A stretch of 48,990 nt of DNA from a virus. The DNA is taken from positions 1 to 48,990 of IMG/VR virus record IMGVR_UViG_3300048916_000093. The stretch is one strand, 5' to 3'. The notes under the pieces are model-generated. The model made no database searches and was not told the origin of the DNA. It was given only the letters and a program-made list of their open reading frames with translations. Position numbers and translations under genes: made by a program. Of the stretch, positions 23,849-48,990 are shown one piece after another (the stretch's first letter is position 1; every line of letters starts with the position of its first letter).

Positions 23849-24109
23849 ATGGCGATACCCGCCGGAGCGTATATGAAAATCGCGTCGGACGCCCAGCAAG
23901 GGAAACTCGACGGACAGGTCAAATCTCCACCCACATACTGGGTAATGACGACCCAAGGCATGAGCGGATTTTTCGCCGTCATGATGTGGGACGGCATGGG
24001 TTTTGACGAGCCGTGGGAAACCGGGTTTGGCCGATACAAGAAATCCTCGCAGGCTGTTGCTGAAGCAAAACAATGGGCTGAAGTCGAGGGTTTGGAATTC
24101 CGACCATGA
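23849..24109 (+). CDS. Hypothetical protein (86 aa)
   Basis: GGAAAGGA lies upstream. It is the first gene of a tightly coupled operon. Confidence 0.65.
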   Translation: MAIPAGAYMKIASDAQQGKLDGQVKSPPTYWVMTTQGMSGFFAVMMWDGMGFDEPWETGFGRYKKSSQAVAEAKQWAEVEGLEFRP

Positions 24110-24486
24110 TCGAGCAAGACGTCCAGAGCCTCATTCGCCTGGAGGGGCCGAGCAAGGGCGTGCGACTCTTCCGGAACAACGTCGGGGTCCTGATCGACAA
24201 GCGCGGGGTGCCCGTGCGCTATGGCCTCGCCAACGACACGGTCAAGCTCAACGAGAAATTGAAGAGCGCGGACCTGATCGGCTGGCGACGCGTGATGATC
24301 ACGCCGGCCATGGTCGGGCATGTCATCGCCCAATTCGTCTCCCGCGAATGCAAGCCCACCGGCTGGACGCCGTCGCGTGAGGGGACACAACTTTTCGCCC
24401 ACGAGGAAGCGCAACGCGAGTGGGCGCGGATCATCAATGAGGACGGCGGGGACGCCAAATTCGCAACAGGAGTTGGGACGCTATGA
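24106..24486 (+). CDS. VRR-NUC domain nuclease
   Basis: It shows VRLFRNNVGV...LKSADLIGWRRV...VIAQFVSRECKPTGW, with the D...E.K core pattern, and an ATGA overlap. Confidence 0.7.
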   Translation: MIEQDVQSLIRLEGPSKGVRLFRNNVGVLIDKRGVPVRYGLANDTVKLNEKLKSADLIGWRRVMITPAMVGHVIAQFVSRECKPTGWTPSREGTQLFAHEEAQREWARIINEDGGDAKFATGVGTL

Positions 24487-25511
24487 GCTACGATTTCATT
24501 ATGCCGCCCACGATCGGCCCTATTGCCGTTCGCCGCGCCGCACGCATGGCCATGGGCGAGGTGATCGAGCGTATGTCGCGCAGCACGGGCTACAAGTTTG
24601 GCCCGCGCGGCTGGGCCTATTACGCGGAAGGGCTGGGCCTGATTACCAAGGGCGAATTCGATCGCTTCGAAAAGCTCTTAACCGACATGCGCAAGGAAGG
24701 CGAGCTTGACCCCGACGTGATCGAGCCGGACGCCTCGCGTATGGCGACGGAGGTTTCTGATTTCGAAGCCGACCCCGACTCGCCCGAAGACCACGCACAA
24801 TACGCTGTTGATGAAATCGGGGACCGGCTCCGGTCCTGGGCGTGGTCGTTCAAAGAATACGGCTACTGGGACGACCTCGATTATTACGTTGAAATGATCG
24901 TCGAGAAAAAGGACCTTGTGCAAATCTTCCGGTCGACCGCCGATCGCTACAATGTGCGGATTACGAACGGCAAGGGCGACACGGATATTCATACCCGGTT
25001 GGCGATGCTCAAGCGGTTCCGCAACCATACGGAAGCCGGCCGGCGGTGCGTGTTGCTCGCGATCGGGGACCACGACCCCAAAGGACTCCATATCGTTGAC
25101 GGCCTCCACCGGACGTTCATGTCGTGCTGCAATATCAAGGGGCTCGATTGGGACGACCCGAATTTCGACGTCATCCCCGTCGGCTTGACGGAAGAGCAAA
25201 TCGACGACTTGGGGTTGATGAAGATCGACAATCTGGAAACCGGCGGCGGTCGTGACCTGTCCGACCGTCGGCACCCCGACCACAACAAGCCATACGTGCA
25301 AGACTATATCGCGCGCTTCGGGGTGTGGAAATGCGAAGCCAACGCTCTTGTCGGCAACCCGCGTCGGGCGGAAGGCTTGCTCGAAACGGCTATCAACCGC
25401 TTCATTCCCGCGACGCACCCCAACGAAATCGACGACAAGAACGGTTCCGGCCGCGCGGCGGTCCAGAGTGAGATTGCCCGCCTCATGGAAGATTGGACGT
25501 TTGATGCATAA
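24483..25511 (+). CDS. Spo11 / topoisomerase VI subunit A-like protein (5Y-CAP plus Toprim), stand-alone
   Basis: 342 aa. PRGWAYYAEG is an R..YY catalytic-Tyr-like motif. The Toprim Glu lies in MIVEKKDLVQIF. Also present are ITNGKGDTDIHTRLAMLKRF and the DxD motif in LLAIGDHDPKGLHIV. Confidence 0.65.
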   Translation: MSYDFIMPPTIGPIAVRRAARMAMGEVIERMSRSTGYKFGPRGWAYYAEGLGLITKGEFDRFEKLLTDMRKEGELDPDVIEPDASRMATEVSDFEADPDSPEDHAQYAVDEIGDRLRSWAWSFKEYGYWDDLDYYVEMIVEKKDLVQIFRSTADRYNVRITNGKGDTDIHTRLAMLKRFRNHTEAGRRCVLLAIGDHDPKGLHIVDGLHRTFMSCCNIKGLDWDDPNFDVIPVGLTEEQIDDLGLMKIDNLETGGGRDLSDRRHPDHNKPYVQDYIARFGVWKCEANALVGNPRRAEGLLETAINRFIPATHPNEIDDKNGSGRAAVQSEIARLMEDWTFDA

Positions 25512-25917
25512 GCCCCGCATCACCATCGCCTATCGCGGGTGGAACAGCGACAAGCGGATAGACCTGGGCGGCAACCGGCCGAATGAGCGCGAATTGCGGG
25601 TCCTCTTCAAAATGGGCCTTGAGCAAATCGAGATCTCGCGGCGGGATTTCATCGCCGGGCTCAAGACGCTCGAAATGGCGGAAGCGGCCGGCGGTAACGA
25701 CCCAATAGCGTGGCGCAAATTTATCGCCACGTCGGAGGGGGACCTTGTCCAGGAAATGGGGCGCGCCGTGCATTGCGACGTGGTGGCAATGCCGACGGCC
25801 AATTTCCCCAACGCTCGCGCGCTCGTCGTGGGGTTCGAAGATCCGGACTATGCAGAGGCCGCCAAGGTCGCGCTCATGACGCTGCTCCAGCTCCACCCTC
25901 CGGAGGAAACACGATGA
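25504..25917 (+). CDS. Hypothetical protein (137 aa)
   Basis: ATG 25504 overlaps the preceding stop, and the coding looks clean. Confidence 0.65.
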   Translation: MHKPRITIAYRGWNSDKRIDLGGNRPNERELRVLFKMGLEQIEISRRDFIAGLKTLEMAEAAGGNDPIAWRKFIATSEGDLVQEMGRAVHCDVVAMPTANFPNARALVVGFEDPDYAEAAKVALMTLLQLHPPEETR

Positions 25918-26492
25918 CGACGCCCGTCAAGATGGCGATGCTCGCGGCCGGCATCGCTCGCGTCCAGGCATTTTGCGAGCGCAACGGGCTCAACGTGCCG
26001 GCGCTCCAGCTCTACAGCCGAGCCGAATGGCGCTACCCCAGCACTTGCGCCTATTACCGCCCGGAGACGATCCATATCGCCGTGGACCGATGCTCCCATA
26101 TCGGCACCGCCAACCGCGCGTGGTCCTACCCCGGATACATCACCGATCGCACGCCCTATGGGGTTATGGCGCACGAGCTGGGCCACCACGTCGACCACAC
26201 CCTGTCGAAGGAAAAAGGCTCTTACGGTGGGGATTTTTCCGTCGCCATGCGGGCGGAAAGCGGCGAGCCGCGGCTTACCAGCTATTGTCCGAACGATTGG
26301 GAGTGGTTCGCCGAAATGTTCCGGCTCTTCGCGACCAATCCTACCTTGCTCCAGGCCGTGCGGCCGAAGACCTTTACCCTCATGATCACGCGTGGATTGC
26401 GGCCCGTCGACCCCCAGCCGTGGCGCGAGATCCTCAAGGACGCGCCGCCGCGCACGCTGGCGATGGCCGAGCGAAAGGTGTTGGGACAGTGA
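25914..26492 (+). CDS. Zn-metallopeptidase-like protein (HEXXH: MAHELGHHVDH), SprT/zincin-like
   Basis: 192 aa with an ATGA overlap and an HELGHH motif. Confidence 0.65.
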   Translation: MTTPVKMAMLAAGIARVQAFCERNGLNVPALQLYSRAEWRYPSTCAYYRPETIHIAVDRCSHIGTANRAWSYPGYITDRTPYGVMAHELGHHVDHTLSKEKGSYGGDFSVAMRAESGEPRLTSYCPNDWEWFAEMFRLFATNPTLLQAVRPKTFTLMITRGLRPVDPQPWREILKDAPPRTLAMAERKVLGQ

Positions 26493-27468: not shown

Positions 27469-27855
27469 ATGGGCACCTTCAACGAATTGGCCGACAAGAT
27501 CGAAGCCGCGCTTGACAAAGGGCGACCCGGCATGGCGGCCATCGGCGGCGCGAAGCGTGAGAACAACCTCGTTTTCGATATAGCGCTACAGCTCGATTCG
27601 ATCATGGCCGCCATGGGCGGAGTCATTCTGGCGATACGGGAGATCGACCCTTGTTTGTCCGCTACCCCCGCGGTCCCTCTTCCCCCTCCGCCCCAGGAGG
27701 TAATTAGGGCCATGGTCGAAAAGGCGTTCCGCGCGGGTTTCGGTGATGGGTTCAGTATGGCCGACAATACCAGTCGGTCGGCCGCCAATGCCATTGACGA
27801 GTGTTGGGAGCATTGGGCCGCAAGAGAGCTTGACGGCGCGGTCAACGCAACGTAA
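27469..27855 (+). CDS. Hypothetical protein (128 aa)
   Basis: AAGGA lies upstream. No family recognised. Confidence 0.65.
   Translation: MGTFNELADKIEAALDKGRPGMAAIGGAKRENNLVFDIALQLDSIMAAMGGVILAIREIDPCLSATPAVPLPPPPQEVIRAMVEKAFRAGFGDGFSMADNTSRSAANAIDECWEHWAARELDGAVNAT
27828..27850 (+). promoter_or_regulatory. Promoter/operator GCTTGACGGCGCGGTCAACGCAA upstream of the TetR-like gene
   Basis: The TTGAC-GGCGCG-GTCAA palindrome is present. The candidate -10 is TAACCA at 27853-27858, and ATG 27866 lies 8 nt downstream, giving a leaderless-type arrangement. Confidence 0.5.
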
Positions 27856-27865
27856 CCACATCGCC

Positions 27866-28216
27866 ATGACCTTTCCGCTCACCTCTCCGCAACGAGCCCG
27901 CGAGCCTCGCGCCCAGCGTGCCGAACGTCGTCGCCACGAGCGCGAGGTTTTGATTCTTGACGCGGCGCTCGTGGTGGCCGAACGTGGCTCATATCTCACA
28001 ATGACCCGTCGAGACGTCGCCCGCGAGGCCGGCGTTTCCAACGGACTTATCAACCACGCGTTCGTTACCATGGACGCGCTTCGGGGGGCTGTTATGCGCG
28101 CGGCAATTGAGCGGGAGAATATTGCGATCGTGCGCCAGGGCATCGCGGCCGGCGACGATCTGGCAACCAACTGTCCGCCTGAATTGCGCGAGGCTGTAGC
28201 CCGCTCGATCGCTTAA
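27866..28216 (+). CDS. Short TetR-family-like HTH regulator (116 aa, no obvious ligand domain)
   Basis: REVLILDAALVVAERGSYLTMTRRDVAREAGVSNGLINHAFVTMDAL matches the TetR N-terminal HTH pattern. Confidence 0.65.
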   Translation: MTFPLTSPQRAREPRAQRAERRRHEREVLILDAALVVAERGSYLTMTRRDVAREAGVSNGLINHAFVTMDALRGAVMRAAIERENIAIVRQGIAAGDDLATNCPPELREAVARSIA

Positions 28217-32703: not shown

Positions 32704-32910
32704 ATGAAAGCGGGCATTATCCTTGACGATTGGAAATTGCCGGTTTTTCGCAAGCGATTGACGGCGGCCGGGTACACCTACACCGACGCGGGCGGCCTCG
32801 CCCACGATACGACGGTTTTGACGGTCGAAACGGACAACGTCTTGGGGCTCAAATCGGTACTTGAGGCGTGCCAAACCGAGTGCGCGCGTACCGGTCGTCC
32901 CCGCTCGTAA
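32704..32910 (+). CDS. Hypothetical protein (68 aa)
   Basis: AGGAG lies 8 nt upstream of ATG 32704. Confidence 0.6.
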   Translation: MKAGIILDDWKLPVFRKRLTAAGYTYTDAGGLAHDTTVLTVETDNVLGLKSVLEACQTECARTGRPRS

Positions 32911-34538
32911 TGCTTCCCGTCTTCGATTGGAAACACCCTGATTACGGGCCGATCTTCGCCCATCGCCTGGGCGTCTATCGCGATATTAAGGATGACGTCG
33001 TTGCGCGTCTCCAGCTCAAGGCGTGGTACAAAGACCACCCGGCGGATTTCATCAACGATTGGGGCGTCACCTTCGACCCGCGGCTAGCGGCCAAGGGCGT
33101 TCCGACCGTGGTCCCCTTCATCCTGTTCGACAAGCAGCGCGAGTGGGTCGATTGGTTCCTAGAGCGCTGGGCCATGAACGAACCGGGCTTGACGGAGAAG
33201 AGTCGCGACATGGGCGTCTCGTGGCTGGCGGTCGCGACGTGTTCCACGCTGGCGAATTTCCGCGAGGGCCTCACCTTCGGGTTCGGGTCGCGTAAGGAAG
33301 AATATGTCGACAAGATCGGCTCGCCTAAGTGCCTGTTCTGGAAGGCGCGCCAATTCATGACCTATCTCCCCGCGGAATTTACCGGGGGATGGGATGCCAA
33401 GCGAGATAGCGCGCACATGCGCCTCTCCTTCCCCCTCACGGGCAGCACGATCACTGGCGAGGCCGGCGACAACATCGGGCGTGGCGATCGTGCGTCCGCG
33501 TACCTCGTCGACGAGGAAGCCTATCTTGAGCGCCCCCAGCTCGTCGAAGCCGCGCTCTCGCAAACCACGGACTGCCGGATTGGGATTTCGAGCGCGAACG
33601 GCATGGGCAACCCTTTCGCGGAGAAGCGCCACTCCGGGCGAATTCCCGTCTTCACCTTCCATTGGCGGAGCGACCCGCGCAAAGATGACGCGTGGTACGC
33701 CAAGCAATGCGAGTTGCTGGACCCTGTCACCGTCGCCCAAGAGATCGACATAAATTACAGCGCCAGCGTTGAGGGCCTCGTCATGCCCAGCGATTGGCTC
33801 CAGGCGTGCGTCGACGCCCATATCAAGCTGGGCTTCGAACCGACGGGCGCAAAAAAGATCGGATTCGACGTAGCCGACGAAGGGCGTGACAAGAACGCCG
33901 ACGCTGGTACGCATGGCGTCGTCCTCATGCATCTGGAGGAATGGAGCGGCAAGGGCATGGATATCGCCGGCTCGACGCAAAAGGCCATGGGCCACGCGGA
34001 CGATTTCGGTTGCGACGATCTCCACTACGACGCGGACGGCCTGGGCGCGGACGTCAAGGGCGCGGCGCGGCTACTCAACGACAAGCGCACCGAAGAAAAT
34101 CGTCCCACCATATCGGTCACGGCTTTCCGGGGGAGCAACAAGGTTTTCGCCCCAAAGAGCGAGGACGTGCCCGGCCGTCTCAATGAGGATTTCTTCGCCA
34201 ATCGTAAGGCGCAATCGTGGTGGGACCTACGTCGCCGCGCCTACAAGACGTGGCGAGCCGTAATCTTCGGCGACCCCTACCCTCACGACGAGCTTATGAG
34301 CTTCGATAGCGCCTCGCTCAACGCGCCCAGGCCCAGCGCGCCCTACGGCATCATGGGGCGAATGATGGTGGAGCTGGCTCAACCGACCTACAAAAAGAAT
34401 GAAGCGGGCAAGCTGGTAATCAACAAAACGCCGGAGGGAATGAAGAGCCCCAACCTTGCCGACGCGGTCATGATAGTGTTTAGTCGCGCCTATCGCGCGC
34501 CGATGGCGGTTCGTGAGGAAGAGCTAGAGGAAATCTAG
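32910..34538 (+). CDS. terL: Terminase large subunit
   Basis: 542 aa with a TAATG overlap. The motifs include DKQREWVDWFLERW, SRDMGVSWLAVA and ASAYLVDEEAYL (Walker B-like), followed by a nuclease-like C half. Confidence 0.85.
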   Translation: MLPVFDWKHPDYGPIFAHRLGVYRDIKDDVVARLQLKAWYKDHPADFINDWGVTFDPRLAAKGVPTVVPFILFDKQREWVDWFLERWAMNEPGLTEKSRDMGVSWLAVATCSTLANFREGLTFGFGSRKEEYVDKIGSPKCLFWKARQFMTYLPAEFTGGWDAKRDSAHMRLSFPLTGSTITGEAGDNIGRGDRASAYLVDEEAYLERPQLVEAALSQTTDCRIGISSANGMGNPFAEKRHSGRIPVFTFHWRSDPRKDDAWYAKQCELLDPVTVAQEIDINYSASVEGLVMPSDWLQACVDAHIKLGFEPTGAKKIGFDVADEGRDKNADAGTHGVVLMHLEEWSGKGMDIAGSTQKAMGHADDFGCDDLHYDADGLGADVKGAARLLNDKRTEENRPTISVTAFRGSNKVFAPKSEDVPGRLNEDFFANRKAQSWWDLRRRAYKTWRAVIFGDPYPHDELMSFDSASLNAPRPSAPYGIMGRMMVELAQPTYKKNEAGKLVINKTPEGMKSPNLADAVMIVFSRAYRAPMAVREEELEEI

Positions 34539-34540
34539 GC

Positions 34541-37114
34541 ATGACCTTTCGCGCGCTGCGGCACGCCGTAATTCGCGCCCTGGGGGGCACGACCGACATG
34601 GCCCCAGCCGTGATCGATTATCGCAAAGGACCTCCTGTCGAACCACGCCGCGTCGCCGGCCTGGGGATGACCGATCAGGATATCGCAGACGCAACGCCGC
34701 CCGAACCGTCGGTGTCGGCCTATGCCATGCCGAAATCTCCGCCGTGGCTCCCGTCATCGGCCGGCGGCATCGCCATGGATAGCGCGGGAATGCCCCCCGC
34801 CCTCACCGCGGCGTCGCTTTATGCCTGGGCGGGCAATGGTGCCTTTGGTGAGGGCCTGGGCTTTCTGGGCTATCCCTATCTGGCGGAGCTTACCCAACGT
34901 CCCGAATATCGTCGCGTCTCCGAGATCTGGGCGGCCGAAGCGGTGCGTAAGTGGATCGAATTTAAAGGCGAAGGCGACCGGATAAAGAAAATCCAAAAAT
35001 CCTTGGAGCGCCTCAAGGTTCGTGACGTCATTCGCCACGCGATCGAGCTGGACGGTTTCATGGGTCGCGCCCAGATTTTCCCGGATCTCGGCTACCATGA
35101 CAACGACGGAGAGTTGCGCGCGATATTCGTCCCGAAGGCCAAGGTGGGCGTCGGCAAGCTCAAGGGGTTCACGGTGATCGAGCCGTTCTGGAGCTACCCT
35201 GGCTCCTACCAATCGACGAACCCCCTCGCCTCCGATTTCTACAAGCCGCGCGAGTGGTACGTCATGGGCAAGATCGTCGACAGCTCGTGGCTGATCACGA
35301 TTGTTGGGCGACCGATGCCGGACCTTCTCAAGCCAGCCTACGCGTTCGGCGGCCTCGCCCAGAGCCAAATGGTCAAGCCCTACGTGGACAACTGGCTCCG
35401 CACCCGCCAGAGCGTTTCCGACCTGATCCACTCATTCTCGACCATGGTCCTCAAGACCAACATGGCGACAATTATTCAAGGTGCGTTGGGCGGCGCGAAG
35501 AAGCTGCTTGACCGTATCAGGCTCTTCAACCGCGGGCGAGACAATCGCGGCCTCATGGCGATCGACAAGGATACGGAGGAACTCGAGAATGTCTCGACCC
35601 CCCTGGGCACGCTCGACAAGCTCCAGGCCCAAGCCCAAGAGCAAATCGCCAGCGTCGCCGGCATTCCGCTTGTCGTTCTCCTGGGCGTCACGCCGTCGGG
35701 CCTCAACGCGTCGAGCGATGGCGAGATCCGCACGTTCTATGCGACGATTGACGGCTATCTCTCGCGGGTAATCAAGCATCCGCTCCAGTACATTATCGAT
35801 TTGGTCCAGCTCGATCTTGACGGAACGATCGACCCCGACCTCACTTGGGATTTCATCCCCCTTTGGGAGACGCCCGAAGCGGAGAAGGCCAATATCCGCA
35901 AGGCCGACGCGGAAACCGATATCGCCTATTGCGCTGCCGGCGTGATCAGTAACGAAAATGTCCGAACGCGCATCACCACCGATCCGGAGAGCATCTATTA
36001 CGGGATGACTCTGGAAGAAGGCGAACCGCCGGCCGATCCGACCTTGGAAGACGATCTCGACGAGGAAGACGATCAGGAGGACGCGGACGGCGGCGGAGAG
36101 CCGGGAAAACCTAAAGGGGGCGTCACGCTCCCCAAGCTCCCTGCCCAGGATGCCCAGCCGGGCGAATTCGACGAAGGAAAGCATCCGCGCGCGCCGGACG
36201 GCAAATTCGGTTCGGGCGCTGGAGGTGGTGGCGCGCCCGCGGAGAAACCCAAGGGTGCCGTCGCGCCGGCTGTTCAATCGATCCTGGGCGACGAGGGCGT
36301 AACGCGGCTCCGCGAGCTGATCGCGGACAAGCAGAGCAAGGCGGCCGACATTATGGCCGTTCTTAAACCGCTCGACGAGGTGGGGCACAATATGACCCCT
36401 ACCCTCCCTCACGACACGACCCCGACCGATTCGTTTTGGCAAGGGCGCACCTACAGCGTCGACGGCAAGCCCGCGACGATTCAGGAGGTAGGCGAACACC
36501 TCGCGGCTACGGCCGAGCATTACGCGGGGCCTGGGGGCGTCAAGCAGCAACGCCGCGCGCGTATCCTCCTGGGGCCGCCGGCCGCCGGCAAGTCAACCAG
36601 CGCGGAAGAGATCGCGCGTCAAGGCGGCTATGCGATCGTGGACGGCGACGACGCCAAGAAGGTCATTCCAGAATTCGAGGGTGGCGTGGGCGCGAGCGCG
36701 GTTCACGAGGAAAGCTCGTATATGGCGGAAGCGGTGTTGGCGGACCAACTCAAGACCGGCAACAACGTCATTCTCCCGCTCGTGGGCGGCAAGCCGGGCT
36801 CGATCGAAAAGCGAATCAAGGTGTTGCGGGACGCCGGCTATGACGTCACCGTGGATCTCGTCGATGTTAACGAGGATGAAGCCGCGCGACGGATGGCTGG
36901 GCGCGCCATGAGGACCGGCCGCCATATCTCGTCGAGCTATTTCGCCTCGATTGGAAACGGCCCGCTCAACACCTATAATTATCTCAAGGATAAGAACCCG
37001 GATCTTGGGTTCGGAAGGATCAACGGCAATGGCGGACACAAAGAGGAACGATACGAGGAAGCCAGCAACCACCCCGACGCTACCCCCGGAAAGTCCCTAT
37101 TCGGAGGAAGCTAA
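34541..37114 (+). CDS. Portal protein (DUF1073-like) fused to a C-terminal Zeta-toxin-like P-loop kinase domain
   Basis: 857 aa. The portal body occupies about aa 1-490. An acidic/Gly linker contains KHPRAPDGKFG. The kinase-like domain has GPPAAGKST, IVDGDD and VILPLVGG. Confidence 0.85.
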   Translation: MTFRALRHAVIRALGGTTDMAPAVIDYRKGPPVEPRRVAGLGMTDQDIADATPPEPSVSAYAMPKSPPWLPSSAGGIAMDSAGMPPALTAASLYAWAGNGAFGEGLGFLGYPYLAELTQRPEYRRVSEIWAAEAVRKWIEFKGEGDRIKKIQKSLERLKVRDVIRHAIELDGFMGRAQIFPDLGYHDNDGELRAIFVPKAKVGVGKLKGFTVIEPFWSYPGSYQSTNPLASDFYKPREWYVMGKIVDSSWLITIVGRPMPDLLKPAYAFGGLAQSQMVKPYVDNWLRTRQSVSDLIHSFSTMVLKTNMATIIQGALGGAKKLLDRIRLFNRGRDNRGLMAIDKDTEELENVSTPLGTLDKLQAQAQEQIASVAGIPLVVLLGVTPSGLNASSDGEIRTFYATIDGYLSRVIKHPLQYIIDLVQLDLDGTIDPDLTWDFIPLWETPEAEKANIRKADAETDIAYCAAGVISNENVRTRITTDPESIYYGMTLEEGEPPADPTLEDDLDEEDDQEDADGGGEPGKPKGGVTLPKLPAQDAQPGEFDEGKHPRAPDGKFGSGAGGGGAPAEKPKGAVAPAVQSILGDEGVTRLRELIADKQSKAADIMAVLKPLDEVGHNMTPTLPHDTTPTDSFWQGRTYSVDGKPATIQEVGEHLAATAEHYAGPGGVKQQRRARILLGPPAAGKSTSAEEIARQGGYAIVDGDDAKKVIPEFEGGVGASAVHEESSYMAEAVLADQLKTGNNVILPLVGGKPGSIEKRIKVLRDAGYDVTVDLVDVNEDEAARRMAGRAMRTGRHISSSYFASIGNGPLNTYNYLKDKNPDLGFGRINGNGGHKEERYEEASNHPDATPGKSLFGGS

Positions 37115-48015: not shown

Positions 48016-48990
48016 ATGACTAGCATCCCAGCCGATCGGCTCGTCAAGGTCACGCCTACGGTCGTTCCGACCGGCGGGACCGGGCTTGACGTCCAGGGCC
48101 TTTTTCTCACGCAAAGCAACCGCGTGCCGATCGGCCAAGTCCAGGCATTCCAGAGCGACGATGACGTTGCCGCCTTCTTCGGCGCGTCGTCCCTGGAGGC
48201 GTCCGTTGCGGTTCGTTATTTCAAGGGCTACGACAGCTCCCCAATCAAACCGGCCAACCTCCTGTTTGCGCAATATCCGCCGACGGACGTTGCCGCATAT
48301 CTTCGCGGCGGCTCGCTCAAAGCGATGACGCTGGCCCAGCTCAAGGCCATCGCCGGCACCGTTGCCCTCACGATCAATGGGGTTTTGGTCACGTCGGGCG
48401 CGATCAACTTGACCGGCGCGACGAGCTTTTCAAGCGCGGCGACGATCATCGCGGCAGCATTCAATCATAACGACGCGAATTTTACCGCGAGCCAATCCGG
48501 CAACGTTCTCACCGTCACCGCGGTTGCGAGTGGCGCACTCGCGGTCGGTCAGGTTGTCGCGGGGGCGGGTGTTACCGCGGGGACCAAGATCACCGCTCTG
48601 GGCACCGGCACCGGTGGGACCGGAACCTATACGGTCGACAGCTCCGCCACGATCGCCAGTGAGGCCATGACGGCCGGTGCGTTGACGGTGGCATTCGACA
48701 GCGTATCGAGTGCCTTTGTCCTCACCGACGGGACGCCGGGTGCCGACAGCACGATCACCACGGCCGACGTATCCAGCGCCGCAACCGCGCTCAAGCTCAC
48801 CACAGCGACGGGCGCGACGACGTCACAAGGTGCGGTTGCGGCGACGCCCGCGAGCGCCATGGATAGCGTCACCGCCGCGACGCAGGATTTCGTTACTTTC
48901 TCGACGATCTTCCAGCCCAGCGACGACGACATGATTGCCTTTGCCGCATGGTGCAGCGATCAGTCGGCGCGTTTCCCCTATATCCAGTGG
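48016..48990 (+). CDS. Tail sheath-like / major tail protein (DUF3383-like), 5' part; continues at nt 128..853 after removing the duplicated 127 nt
   Basis: ATG 48016 follows GGGGAG. The frame is open to the window end (MTSIPADRLVKVTPTVVPTGGTGLDVQGLFLTQSNRVPIGQ...). The joined product is 566 aa. The N-terminal pattern and the position upstream of tube, chaperone and tape measure fit a sheath/major tail protein. Confidence 0.8.
   Translation, partial: MTSIPADRLVKVTPTVVPTGGTGLDVQGLFLTQSNRVPIGQVQAFQSDDDVAAFFGASSLEASVAVRYFKGYDSSPIKPANLLFAQYPPTDVAAYLRGGSLKAMTLAQLKAIAGTVALTINGVLVTSGAINLTGATSFSSAATIIAAAFNHNDANFTASQSGNVLTVTAVASGALAVGQVVAGAGVTAGTKITALGTGTGGTGTYTVDSSATIASEAMTAGALTVAFDSVSSAFVLTDGTPGADSTITTADVSSAATALKLTTATGATTSQGAVAATPASAMDSVTAATQDFVTFSTIFQPSDDDMIAFAAWCSDQSARFPYIQW
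48864..48990. repeat. Terminal exact duplication, copy 2
   Basis: Identical to nt 1-127. Confidence 0.95.

Follow-up and report, generated by a model that had tools for sequence, protein, structure and literature searches.

The virus record IMGVR_UViG_3300048916_000093 of IMG/VR (positions 1 to 48,990; this whole stretch of 48,990 nucleotides is referred to as the window) carries at 24483..25511 a gene for a protein of 342 amino acids (aa) which, judged from its sequence, is a stand-alone Mini-A, that is, a protein resembling a type IIB topoisomerase's A subunit. Lone Topo VI-A-like proteins of bacterial and archaeal viruses were given the name Mini-A by Takahashi et al. 2019/2020 (NAR Genom Bioinform, PMC7671362). 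The gene is a correctly identified further member of a family that is already in PHROGs and in GenBank annotations and does not represent a new kind of protein; what is added here is the residue-level active site of its subgroup, a complete genome without a partner gene, the lack of any conserved neighbour, and the finding that the subgroup includes Topo VIII-type ATPase fusions as well as intein-bearing members. A preliminary description, made from the letters of the window, had proposed a 342-aa open reading frame (ORF) at 24483-25511 encoding a stand-alone, Topo VI-A-like 'Mini-A'. The ORF is present with the translation exactly as quoted there, the listed motifs were all found (RGWAYYAE at residues 42-49, VEK at 140-142, NGKGDTDIHTRLAMLKRF at 162-179 and GDHDPKG at 195-201), and the family assignment is borne out by profile alignment to canonical Mini-A and by the absence of a B subunit, both detailed below. 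The features of the gene are as follows:

24483..25511, plus strand: Mini-A gene, 342 aa (ORF and translation; PHROG_6247; hhalign; AlphaFold and Foldseek; substitution rates)
24468..24486, plus strand: translation-initiation region as read from the sequence, with AGGAG at 24468-24472, a 10-nt spacer and the ATG within ATGA at 24483-24486
24606..24629, plus strand: CAP motif R42-G-W-A-Y46-Y-A-E49, with Y46 as the candidate catalytic tyrosine and R42 as its partner arginine
24900..24908, plus strand: Toprim motif V140-E141-K142, with E141 as the candidate Toprim glutamate and a putative role in general acid/base catalysis and as a metal ligand
24966..25019, plus strand: Toprim segment NGKGDTDIHTRLAMLKRF, with G165 invariant and R172 and R178 near-invariant
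25065..25085, plus strand: Toprim metal-binding motif G-D196-H-D198-P-K-G201 (DxDxxG), with invariant D196, D198 and G201
25326..25349, plus strand: C-terminal T2BI box W282-K283-C-E285-A-N287-A-L289, with K283 and E285 invariant and N287 near-invariant

The assignment to the Mini-A family is supported by several searches. PHROG_6247 ('DNA topoisomerase') matches the protein at E 1e-38, and by BLASTP it is 34% identical (E 8e-55) to BDI55083.1 from the Asgard archaeal element 10H_0, which its depositors annotated as 'Topo mini-A' and which is treated as Mini-A in the literature (bioRxiv 10.1101/2021.07.29.453957). A homologue that is 77% identical lies in a prophage of Sphingomonas sp. R-74633, and tblastn retrieved relatives of 22-32% identity from phages of Cellulophaga, Flavobacterium, Chryseobacterium and Bacteroides and from the haloarchaeal virus HCIV-1. 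We then compared by hhalign a family profile of 60 diverse homologues (26-74% identical to the window's protein) with a canonical set of three Mini-A carrying the xWELDAL signature (WP_042209805 from a P. durus plasmid, WP_031849887 from V. campbellii pLMB96 and BDI55143 from Asgard 7H_11). The two aligned over 273 columns with a probability of 99.9% and E 7e-32, and the R/Y motif, the VEK glutamate, the DxDxxG motif and the C-terminal box were all in register, which makes the Mini-A membership secure. The same profile aligned with the HCIV-1 group at E 1e-29.

The gene itself is well supported as a coding sequence. When 1.84 billion cluster representatives (50% identity) were searched exhaustively with phmmer, homologues turned up in 779 clusters at E<=1e-3 and in 118 at E<=1e-30. 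Against nine relatives of 76-81% protein identity, the ratio of nonsynonymous to synonymous substitution rates (dN/dS) was 0.07-0.12, with dS of 1.4-2.3 and synonymous sites near saturation; the gene is under strong purifying selection. The 779 clusters together with a dN/dS of ~0.1 indicate that 24483-25511 is not a chance ORF of a GC-rich sequence. Its start codon shares the ATGA at 24483-24486 with the stop codon of the upstream ORF 24106-24486, and the downstream ORF starts at 25504, overlapping the end of the Mini-A gene by 8 nt, ATGCATAA.

Conservation among the 60 homologues singles out the candidate catalytic residues. Y46, K56, E141, G165, D196, D198, G201, L251, K283 and E285 are invariant; conservation of at least 90% extends to R42, W44, E49, F59, R70, G73, R86, V140, K142, R172, R178, N287 and some further positions. 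The preliminary description had placed the catalytic tyrosine in an R..YY motif; the arginine-tyrosine pair is indeed conserved, but the two tyrosines are not equivalent, as Y46, which leads the YY pair and stands four positions beyond R42, is invariant and Y47 is variable. The Toprim glutamate and DxD motif proposed there stand, since E141, D196, D198 and G201 not only are invariant but also align with the canonical Mini-A motifs. The R42-Y46 motif aligns with RQxYY of canonical Mini-A and with RDVYY of the HCIV-1 group; the spacing of R42 and Y46 is that of the R-x-x-[Y/F]-Y signature of the Mini-A 5Y-CAP domain, with A or C as the residue before the tyrosine. In a survey of 155 sequences, RGW[CAG]Y, D[HF]DPxG and [RW]K[VC]EANA[LIV] were the prevailing motifs. 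In Top6A the T2BI box lies at the dimer interface, where its glutamate contacts R99 (the arginine) and Y103 (the catalytic tyrosine) of the partner subunit (PMC7671362). The invariance of this box and of Y46, with a near-invariant R42, suggests that a dimeric active site assembled in trans has been kept. As far as the alignments can tell, the set of residues that defines a type IIB cleavage site is complete and conserved in the window's Mini-A.

Two of the homologues carry inteins with LAGLIDADG motifs, inserted at two different catalytic Toprim motifs. The intein of P0195 (711 aa) lies directly before the DxD motif (LLY/C...THN/CGDHDP, borders marked by slashes), and that of P0209 (687 aa) lies inside the N.KGW motif (IAN/C...SGN/SKGW). 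Inteins favour essential proteins of replication and repair.

The link between the window's Mini-A and Topo VI-A or Spo11 is homologous but very remote. The order of domains is the same, as are the arginine, the tyrosine and the DxD (R99/Y103 and D249xD251 in M. jannaschii numbering), and by motif order the Toprim glutamate and the C-terminal box would correspond to E197 and R338xE340; the protein is, however, 12-14% identical, matches neither TP6A_N nor Toprim in Pfam, is shorter, is encoded by a phage, and has neither a B or B-like partner nor the N-terminal CAP segment that binds B. It aligns from about residue 34-70 of Top6A, so that its R/Y motif stands at 42-46 as against 99-103 in Top6A. 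At 342 aa and with the N-terminal B-binding part of the CAP domain missing, the protein has the build of Mini-A (~300 aa); the missing segment is the one through which Top6A binds Top6B (PMC7671362). Against a Top6A profile of 32 full-length genes extracted from a genome scan, hhalign of the query family alone was marginal (P 3.8e-4), with the DxD in register and the CAP region misplaced. When the family was merged with the HCIV-1 group, the alignment had a probability of 71% (P 3.6e-5, 259 columns) and paired R42 with R99, Y46 with Y103 and D196xD198 with D249xD251; canonical Mini-A aligned with Top6A at P 2.6e-5. In every hhalign run GDHDPKG was aligned to TDGDPYG of Top6A, and in the merged alignment n.kGw...R...Rf was paired with GGVPt..RA.RRF of Top6A, a KG..R..RF pattern being typical of Top6A/Spo11.

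Structural comparison pointed in the same direction. An AlphaFold2 model built on the 60-sequence alignment had a predicted local distance difference test score (pLDDT) of 93.7 and a predicted template modelling score (pTM) of 0.88. Its sole Foldseek match in the PDB at E<=1e-3 was 1D3Y, the Topo VI A of M. jannaschii (E 8.3e-4, probability 0.99, 340 columns), and a Foldseek search of the viral BFVD library gave nothing significant. A 5Y-CAP plus Toprim fold is thereby supported moderately, not overwhelmingly. The preliminary description had named JetD, DUF2220 and DUF2399 beside Topo VI-A as possible likenesses; the likeness to Topo VI-A was recovered through 1D3Y, but JetD, DUF2220 and DUF2399 gave no match in Pfam, PADLOC or the Foldseek search of the PDB. 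The tyrosine, the arginine and the DxD fell in register with Topo VI-A, but the glutamate was not placed by hhalign.

We then considered the position of the protein among its relatives. The collected sequences form at least three stand-alone groups, namely the xWELDAL Mini-A (~300 aa), the haloviral HCIV-1 group (motifs RDVYY, DxN and VELNAL) and the group of the window's protein (~340 aa), which takes in PHROG_6247, the Asgard 10H_0 protein and ATPase-fused forms. According to Takahashi et al., the subfamilies can be told apart by this box, Topo VI having R/KxExxA/S, Topo VIII having RVELNAM and Mini-A having xWELDAL (PMC7671362). The literal xWELDAL signature is missing from the window's protein, which has KCEANAL after W282 (RK[VC]EANAL in its subgroup); its box nevertheless aligns positionally with xWELDAL and has E, A and L in common with it. 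We read the missing signature as divergence of the subgroup because the homology to Mini-A is far stronger than that to Topo VIII A-halves. The likeness to canonical Mini-A extends to the truncated 5Y-CAP with its R...Y, the Toprim glutamate and DxDxxG, the C-terminal interface box, the viral origin and the lack of a B subunit. The window's protein differs in its length (~340 aa vs ~300 aa), in the residue before the tyrosine (C or A, as in RGW[CA]Y, vs Y or F), in an extra segment of ~30 aa ('IDNLxTgsGkdLxdPxHxdH'), in its box (RK[VC]EANAL vs xWELDAL) and in belonging to a subgroup that includes ATPase-fused members.

Topo VIII enzymes are type IIB topoisomerases that are carried on plasmids and join B and A in a single chain (Gadelle et al. 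2014; Takahashi et al. 2019), and the box of the query clade (K-V/C-E-A-N-A-L) is nearer to its RVELNAM than to xWELDAL. However, the A-halves of Topo VIII carry RQLFYxxRP, LEKEG, HDxDAxG and RVELNxM (verified in pPPM1a, pBASL58 and a Methylobacterium plasmid), whereas the window's protein has no B moiety, has E49 instead of an arginine three residues after Y46, and has KCEANAL as its box. Topo VIII also matches TOP6A-Spo11_Toprim of Pfam, which the window's protein does not. BLAST detected no similarity between it and canonical Topo VIII A-halves, and the family profile matched a single Topo VIII sequence weakly (hhalign E 0.021).

Six relatives of 734-887 aa (P0126, P0137, P0153, P0216, P0224 and P0249), which are 35-42% identical to the window's protein, have an N-terminal HATPase_c domain. 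Their GHKL/transducer half is 37-48% identical to the B-halves of Topo VIII (pBASL58, pMPPla107, pPPM1a and the Methylobacterium plasmid), and the 13 best PDB matches of an AlphaFold model of P0126 (pLDDT 82.9) are all Topo VI-B (E 5e-14 to 2e-12, 470-510 columns). The cleavage half of these fused forms has RGWCY, no arginine at three residues after the tyrosine, and RK[VC]EANAL. Joined in this way to a Topo VIII-type B-half, a module of the query type takes exactly the place that the A moiety has in a type IIB topoisomerase. The combination of a Topo VIII-type B-half with a Mini-A-type A-half is not described in the portions of Takahashi et al. 2019 drawn on here (PMC7671362). In a neighbour-joining (NJ) tree of 104 A modules, which is star-like and carries no support values, the fused forms are scattered, each beside different stand-alone proteins, and this scatter suggests that the B module was gained or lost repeatedly in the query clade. 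The idea that P0125, a stand-alone neighbour of a fused form, is one part of a split enzyme was rejected, as only ORFs of 68 and 71 aa precede it; P0173, which lies at a contig edge, is uninformative on this point. The N-termini of most stand-alone proteins read 'LPxxxRGR(P/K)S', which corresponds to the B-A linker of the fused forms (LLPQRKRGRQS in P0126); the window's protein begins with MPPTIGPI and has lost the RGR.

No partner for the protein was found in the window. An exact direct repeat of 127 bp stands at the window ends (1-127 = 48864-48990), as is usual for a circular assembly; in all likelihood, then, the window represents the whole circular genome of a phage, probably of ~48.86 kb. 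Neither tblastn nor a profile of six B-halves, run over all ORFs of at least 60 aa in the window, found a B-half homologue, and there is no GHKL domain in the large ORFs scanned, all of which except 32868-34538 match structural or replication families. The claimed absence of a B subunit thus holds for the whole complete genome by both of these searches, and a split B subunit elsewhere in the genome was rejected, there being no B-half or GHKL match.

Likewise, nothing recurs beside the gene in its relatives. Of the 14 genes that flank Mini-A in the window, none lay within 6 kb of its homologue in the related loci (29 in all, comprising the Sphingomonas prophage and 28 contigs of IMG/VR), save for a single weak match to GP88 and another to the helicase. 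The upstream endonuclease-like ORF and the downstream ORF 25504-25917 are absent near Mini-A in all 29 loci, the flanking genes differ even where Mini-A is 76-81% identical, and de novo clustering of the ORFs of 30 loci gave no family other than Mini-A common to at least four loci. A conserved partner, whether a 'Mini-B', the VRR-NUC gene or the downstream ORF, was therefore rejected. The preliminary description had stressed a translational coupling to an upstream VRR-NUC gene: the ATGA overlap is real, but the VRR-NUC label is supported in part (PHROG_93 at E 2.5e-7, none in Pfam). As this coupling is conserved in no relative, it says little about function and is a local arrangement. The DNA homology to eleven relatives (L001 and L089-L098; 67-77% identity) spans ~24491 to ~25506 and ends at the ORF borders, which, with the unshared flanks, indicates a self-contained unit exchanged between unrelated phages; the Mini-A gene is a single-gene mosaic module. 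An origin-like repeat or cis element in or beside the gene was rejected, as only short repeats at chance level were seen. In relatives, among them temperate-type phages and prophages, Mini-A lies in early regions among small ORFs, near helix-turn-helix (HTH) regulators and primases.

The explanation that we favour as a whole, and hold with moderate confidence, is that the window's Mini-A is a type IIB cleavage module without a B subunit, which would act as a dimer, make Mg-dependent breaks through Y46 and feed phage replication or recombination. Mini-A would represent a DNA-cleavage module free of the ATPase, composed of a truncated CAP/winged-helix domain (R42, Y46) and a Top6A-type Toprim domain (E141, D196xD198). 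By analogy with Topo VI-A and Spo11, two copies would dimerise, held together in part through the C-terminal K283xE285 box, and each of the two active sites would be built from both copies, one giving the tyrosine and its partner the Toprim site that binds Mg2+. E141, D196 and D198 would hold the Mg2+ while Y46 attacks the phosphodiester, an attack that would leave the protein attached covalently to the 5' ends of a staggered double-strand break or of a nick. As there is no ATP-driven gate, directed strand passage is not expected, and Mini-A is most likely an enzyme that breaks and possibly rejoins DNA, rather than a true topoisomerase. The mouse SPO11 makes covalent double-strand breaks in vitro without partners once it is dimerised (PMC11922746), which indicates that an A subunit can be self-sufficient. 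The most speculative steps are that Mini-A may act early, alongside the helicase, the nucleases, the Gp2.5-like annealing protein, the DNA polymerase and the primase-polymerase of the phage, and that the breaks or nicks it makes in phage DNA may supply replication of a recombination-dependent or rolling-circle type. Within the explanation, the biological role is the least secure part; replication or recombination is speculatively favoured because the gene lies in the replication region, because some archaeal viruses, the skuldviruses among them, have no other candidate for a replication protein (bioRxiv 10.1101/2021.07.29.453957), and because inteins have invaded the family twice. The roles suggested in the preliminary description, namely double-strand-break formation for recombination-dependent replication, attack on host DNA or the countering of an SMC-type defence, are likewise speculative.

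Several observations weigh against this explanation. Scans of the protein with Pfam, NCBIfam and PADLOC gave no hits, and phmmer and a hmmsearch with the family profile against PDB sequences gave noise only. The rigid-body template modelling score to 1D3Y is poor (0.30-0.34), presumably because the two domains are oriented differently, and the Foldseek search of the PDB retrieved no further Top6A, Spo11 or JetD structure. The CAP region of the family profile alone is not significantly similar to Top6A (P 0.07), and hhalign never placed the Toprim glutamate and the C-terminal box on E197 and R338-E340 of Top6A, so that these two equivalences rest on motif order and the literature. The role in replication or recombination is read from the gene neighbourhood, which is itself not conserved, and an enzyme that is consumed stoichiometrically by covalent trapping would need a release pathway, none of which was identified here. 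To our knowledge, archaeal Top6A alone is inactive without its B subunit, which makes the self-sufficiency of Mini-A an assumption. There are no biochemical data for any Mini-A according to PMC11894792 and bioRxiv 10.64898/2026.02.13.705702; we found no experimental paper on Mini-A, and the reviews to December 2024 and the 2026 preprint assign no function to it.

The same chemistry could conceivably serve an accessory role, in which Mini-A is a mobile 'weapon' or counter-defence protein that breaks the DNA of the host, of a competitor or of a defence substrate and is not a component of replication. The cassette-like mobility of the gene, with copies of 76-81% identity in unrelated surroundings and DNA homology that stops at the ORF borders, fits host attack or counter-defence equally well, and the relatives sit among small early ORFs downstream of HTH regulators, a typical spot for accessory genes. 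Nevertheless, no PADLOC model matches the protein, nor does it fall into any anti-defence family that is known; Mini-A is a very large and old family, with 779 clusters and members among bacterial and archaeal viruses and plasmids, and both the skuldvirus case (bioRxiv 10.1101/2021.07.29.453957) and the two intein colonisations are more in keeping with a replication protein; we consider the accessory role unlikely. A different departure from the favoured explanation concerns Y46, as Mini-A could instead be a hydrolytic Toprim nuclease like JetD/MksG or the OLD family, with the tyrosine serving DNA binding or structure. Top6A-type Toprim domains do serve as plain nucleases in Wadjet without a GHKL partner, JetD/MksG act hydrolytically within a structural maintenance of chromosomes (SMC) complex, and there is a weak DUF2399 match (E 0.12) around the DxD of an Asgard Mini-A. 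Against this stand the invariance of Y46 and the conservation of R42 in at least 90% of homologues, both aligned with the catalytic R/Y of Top6A, the invariance of the box that contacts them, and the lack of any Pfam or PADLOC likeness to JetD, DUF2220 or MksG and of JetD among the Foldseek hits. Searches of the window's protein for JetD/MksG, DUF2220 and DUF2399 came back empty in Pfam (E<=1), in PADLOC (E<=0.1) and among the Foldseek matches in the PDB; unlike JetD/MksG, the protein retains the R/Y pair of the covalent type IIB enzymes. A hydrolytic nuclease is accordingly very improbable in our estimate.

It could also be argued that Mini-A is not self-sufficient and pairs with a GHKL ATPase of the host (such as GyrB, ParE or MutL), or with a phage 'Mini-B' too divergent to be recognised, to form a strand-passing type II topoisomerase. 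Takahashi et al. leave room for this (PMC7671362), and it draws on the close relatives in which a Topo VIII/VI-B-type ATPase is joined to the A module and which the NJ tree spreads among stand-alone proteins, and on the 'LPxxxRGR' start of most stand-alone proteins, which matches the B-A linker of the fused forms. However, the RGR motif is lost in the window's protein, neither a GHKL protein nor a homologue of the B-half was found in the complete genome, none of the genes accompanies Mini-A across the 30 loci, and Mini-A proteins are without the N-terminal CAP segment that binds Top6B (PMC7671362); such a pairing appears quite unlikely. A bolder proposal, which we put forward as a doubtful but possible one, is that the RGWcY / RK[VC]EANAL clade is the A module of an undescribed type IIB lineage, to which a Topo VIII-type ATPase was repeatedly joined or from which it was repeatedly lost. 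The stand-alone phage forms would then be B-less, constitutively dimeric and self-sufficient 'viral Spo11s', whose covalent double-strand breaks would prime recombination-dependent replication.

Outside eukaryotes, no lone proteins related to Spo11 and Topo VI-A are known apart from Mini-A proteins, which are widespread in the viruses of both bacteria and archaea. If Mini-A does cut DNA alone, it would offer the simplest model in nature of the reaction of Spo11 and a hint at how type IIB topoisomerases arose. If the clade is an undescribed lineage, this would bear directly on the nature of the ancestor shared by Topo VI and Spo11, which may have been either a viral A protein on its own or an enzyme with B and A together. 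The window offers a clean case, being a complete phage genome with neither an ATPase partner nor a conserved neighbour. The targets for mutation are defined, namely the invariant Y46, E141, D196/D198 and K283/E285, with R42 (conserved in at least 90% of homologues) in addition. The fused and stand-alone forms of one cleavage module also provide a natural pair, with and without B, for biochemical comparison.

The window has the genes of a tailed phage, including those for a tape measure protein, baseplate hub and wedge, portal, head protease and major head protein, and a megablast search of 20-32 kb of the window against sequenced phages gave no match. The replication region consists of two divergent blocks. 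The minus-strand block encodes a family-A DNA polymerase (PolA), a Gp2.5-like protein for single-stranded DNA binding and annealing, and a DUF2800 exonuclease. The plus-strand block begins with a superfamily 2 (SF2) helicase, an 86-aa ORF, a probable PD-(D/E)xK endonuclease and Mini-A, in this order, and continues with two ORFs of no known family, a GP88-like ORF, a TetR-like regulator and an NrS-1-type primase-polymerase. Mini-A thus lies inside a co-directional block that runs from the helicase to the primase-polymerase, within which there is no convincing terminator; a scan for promoters and terminators remained at background level. The other features of interest are as follows:

24106..24486, plus strand: upstream ORF, 126 aa, probable PD-(D/E)xK / VRR-NUC-like endonuclease (PHROG_93 'endonuclease', E 2.5e-7)
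25504..25917, plus strand: downstream ORF, 137 aa, overlapping the Mini-A stop by 8 nt (read from the sequence)
25914-26492, plus strand: ORF of 192 aa, with an ATGA overlap with the preceding ORF and the HExxH motif AHELGHH (Pfam ATLF, E 0.0023, weak)
27469-27855 and 27743-28216, plus strand: TetR-family HTH ORF (Pfam TetR_N, E 5e-8), just upstream of the NrS-1-type primase-polymerase
32868-34538, plus strand: ORF of 556 aa directly upstream of the portal gene, with no match in Pfam or PHROGs, GHKL models included
34541-37114, plus strand: unusually long portal, 857 aa, with residues ~665-830 matching minor head protein, ATPase and polynucleotide-kinase-like PHROGs

In the upstream ORF 24106-24486, a pattern of E3...D56...E81xK83 is readable in the sequence, and a Pfam scan gave no endonuclease match. 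Residues ~32-96 of this ORF repeatedly showed a weak likeness to ribosomal protein S19 (Pfam E 0.056; PDB E 0.003-0.01), which was treated as chance. The downstream ORF 25504-25917 has no match in Pfam, PHROGs, PADLOC or NCBIfam, and the ORF that follows it, 25914-26492, may be a small zinc metallopeptidase of the early block. The TetR-like ORF as listed overlaps the preceding ORF by ~110 nt, which is indicative that its true start is probably further downstream. Finally, the location of ORF 32868-34538 next to the portal gene suggests that it is a highly divergent large terminase.

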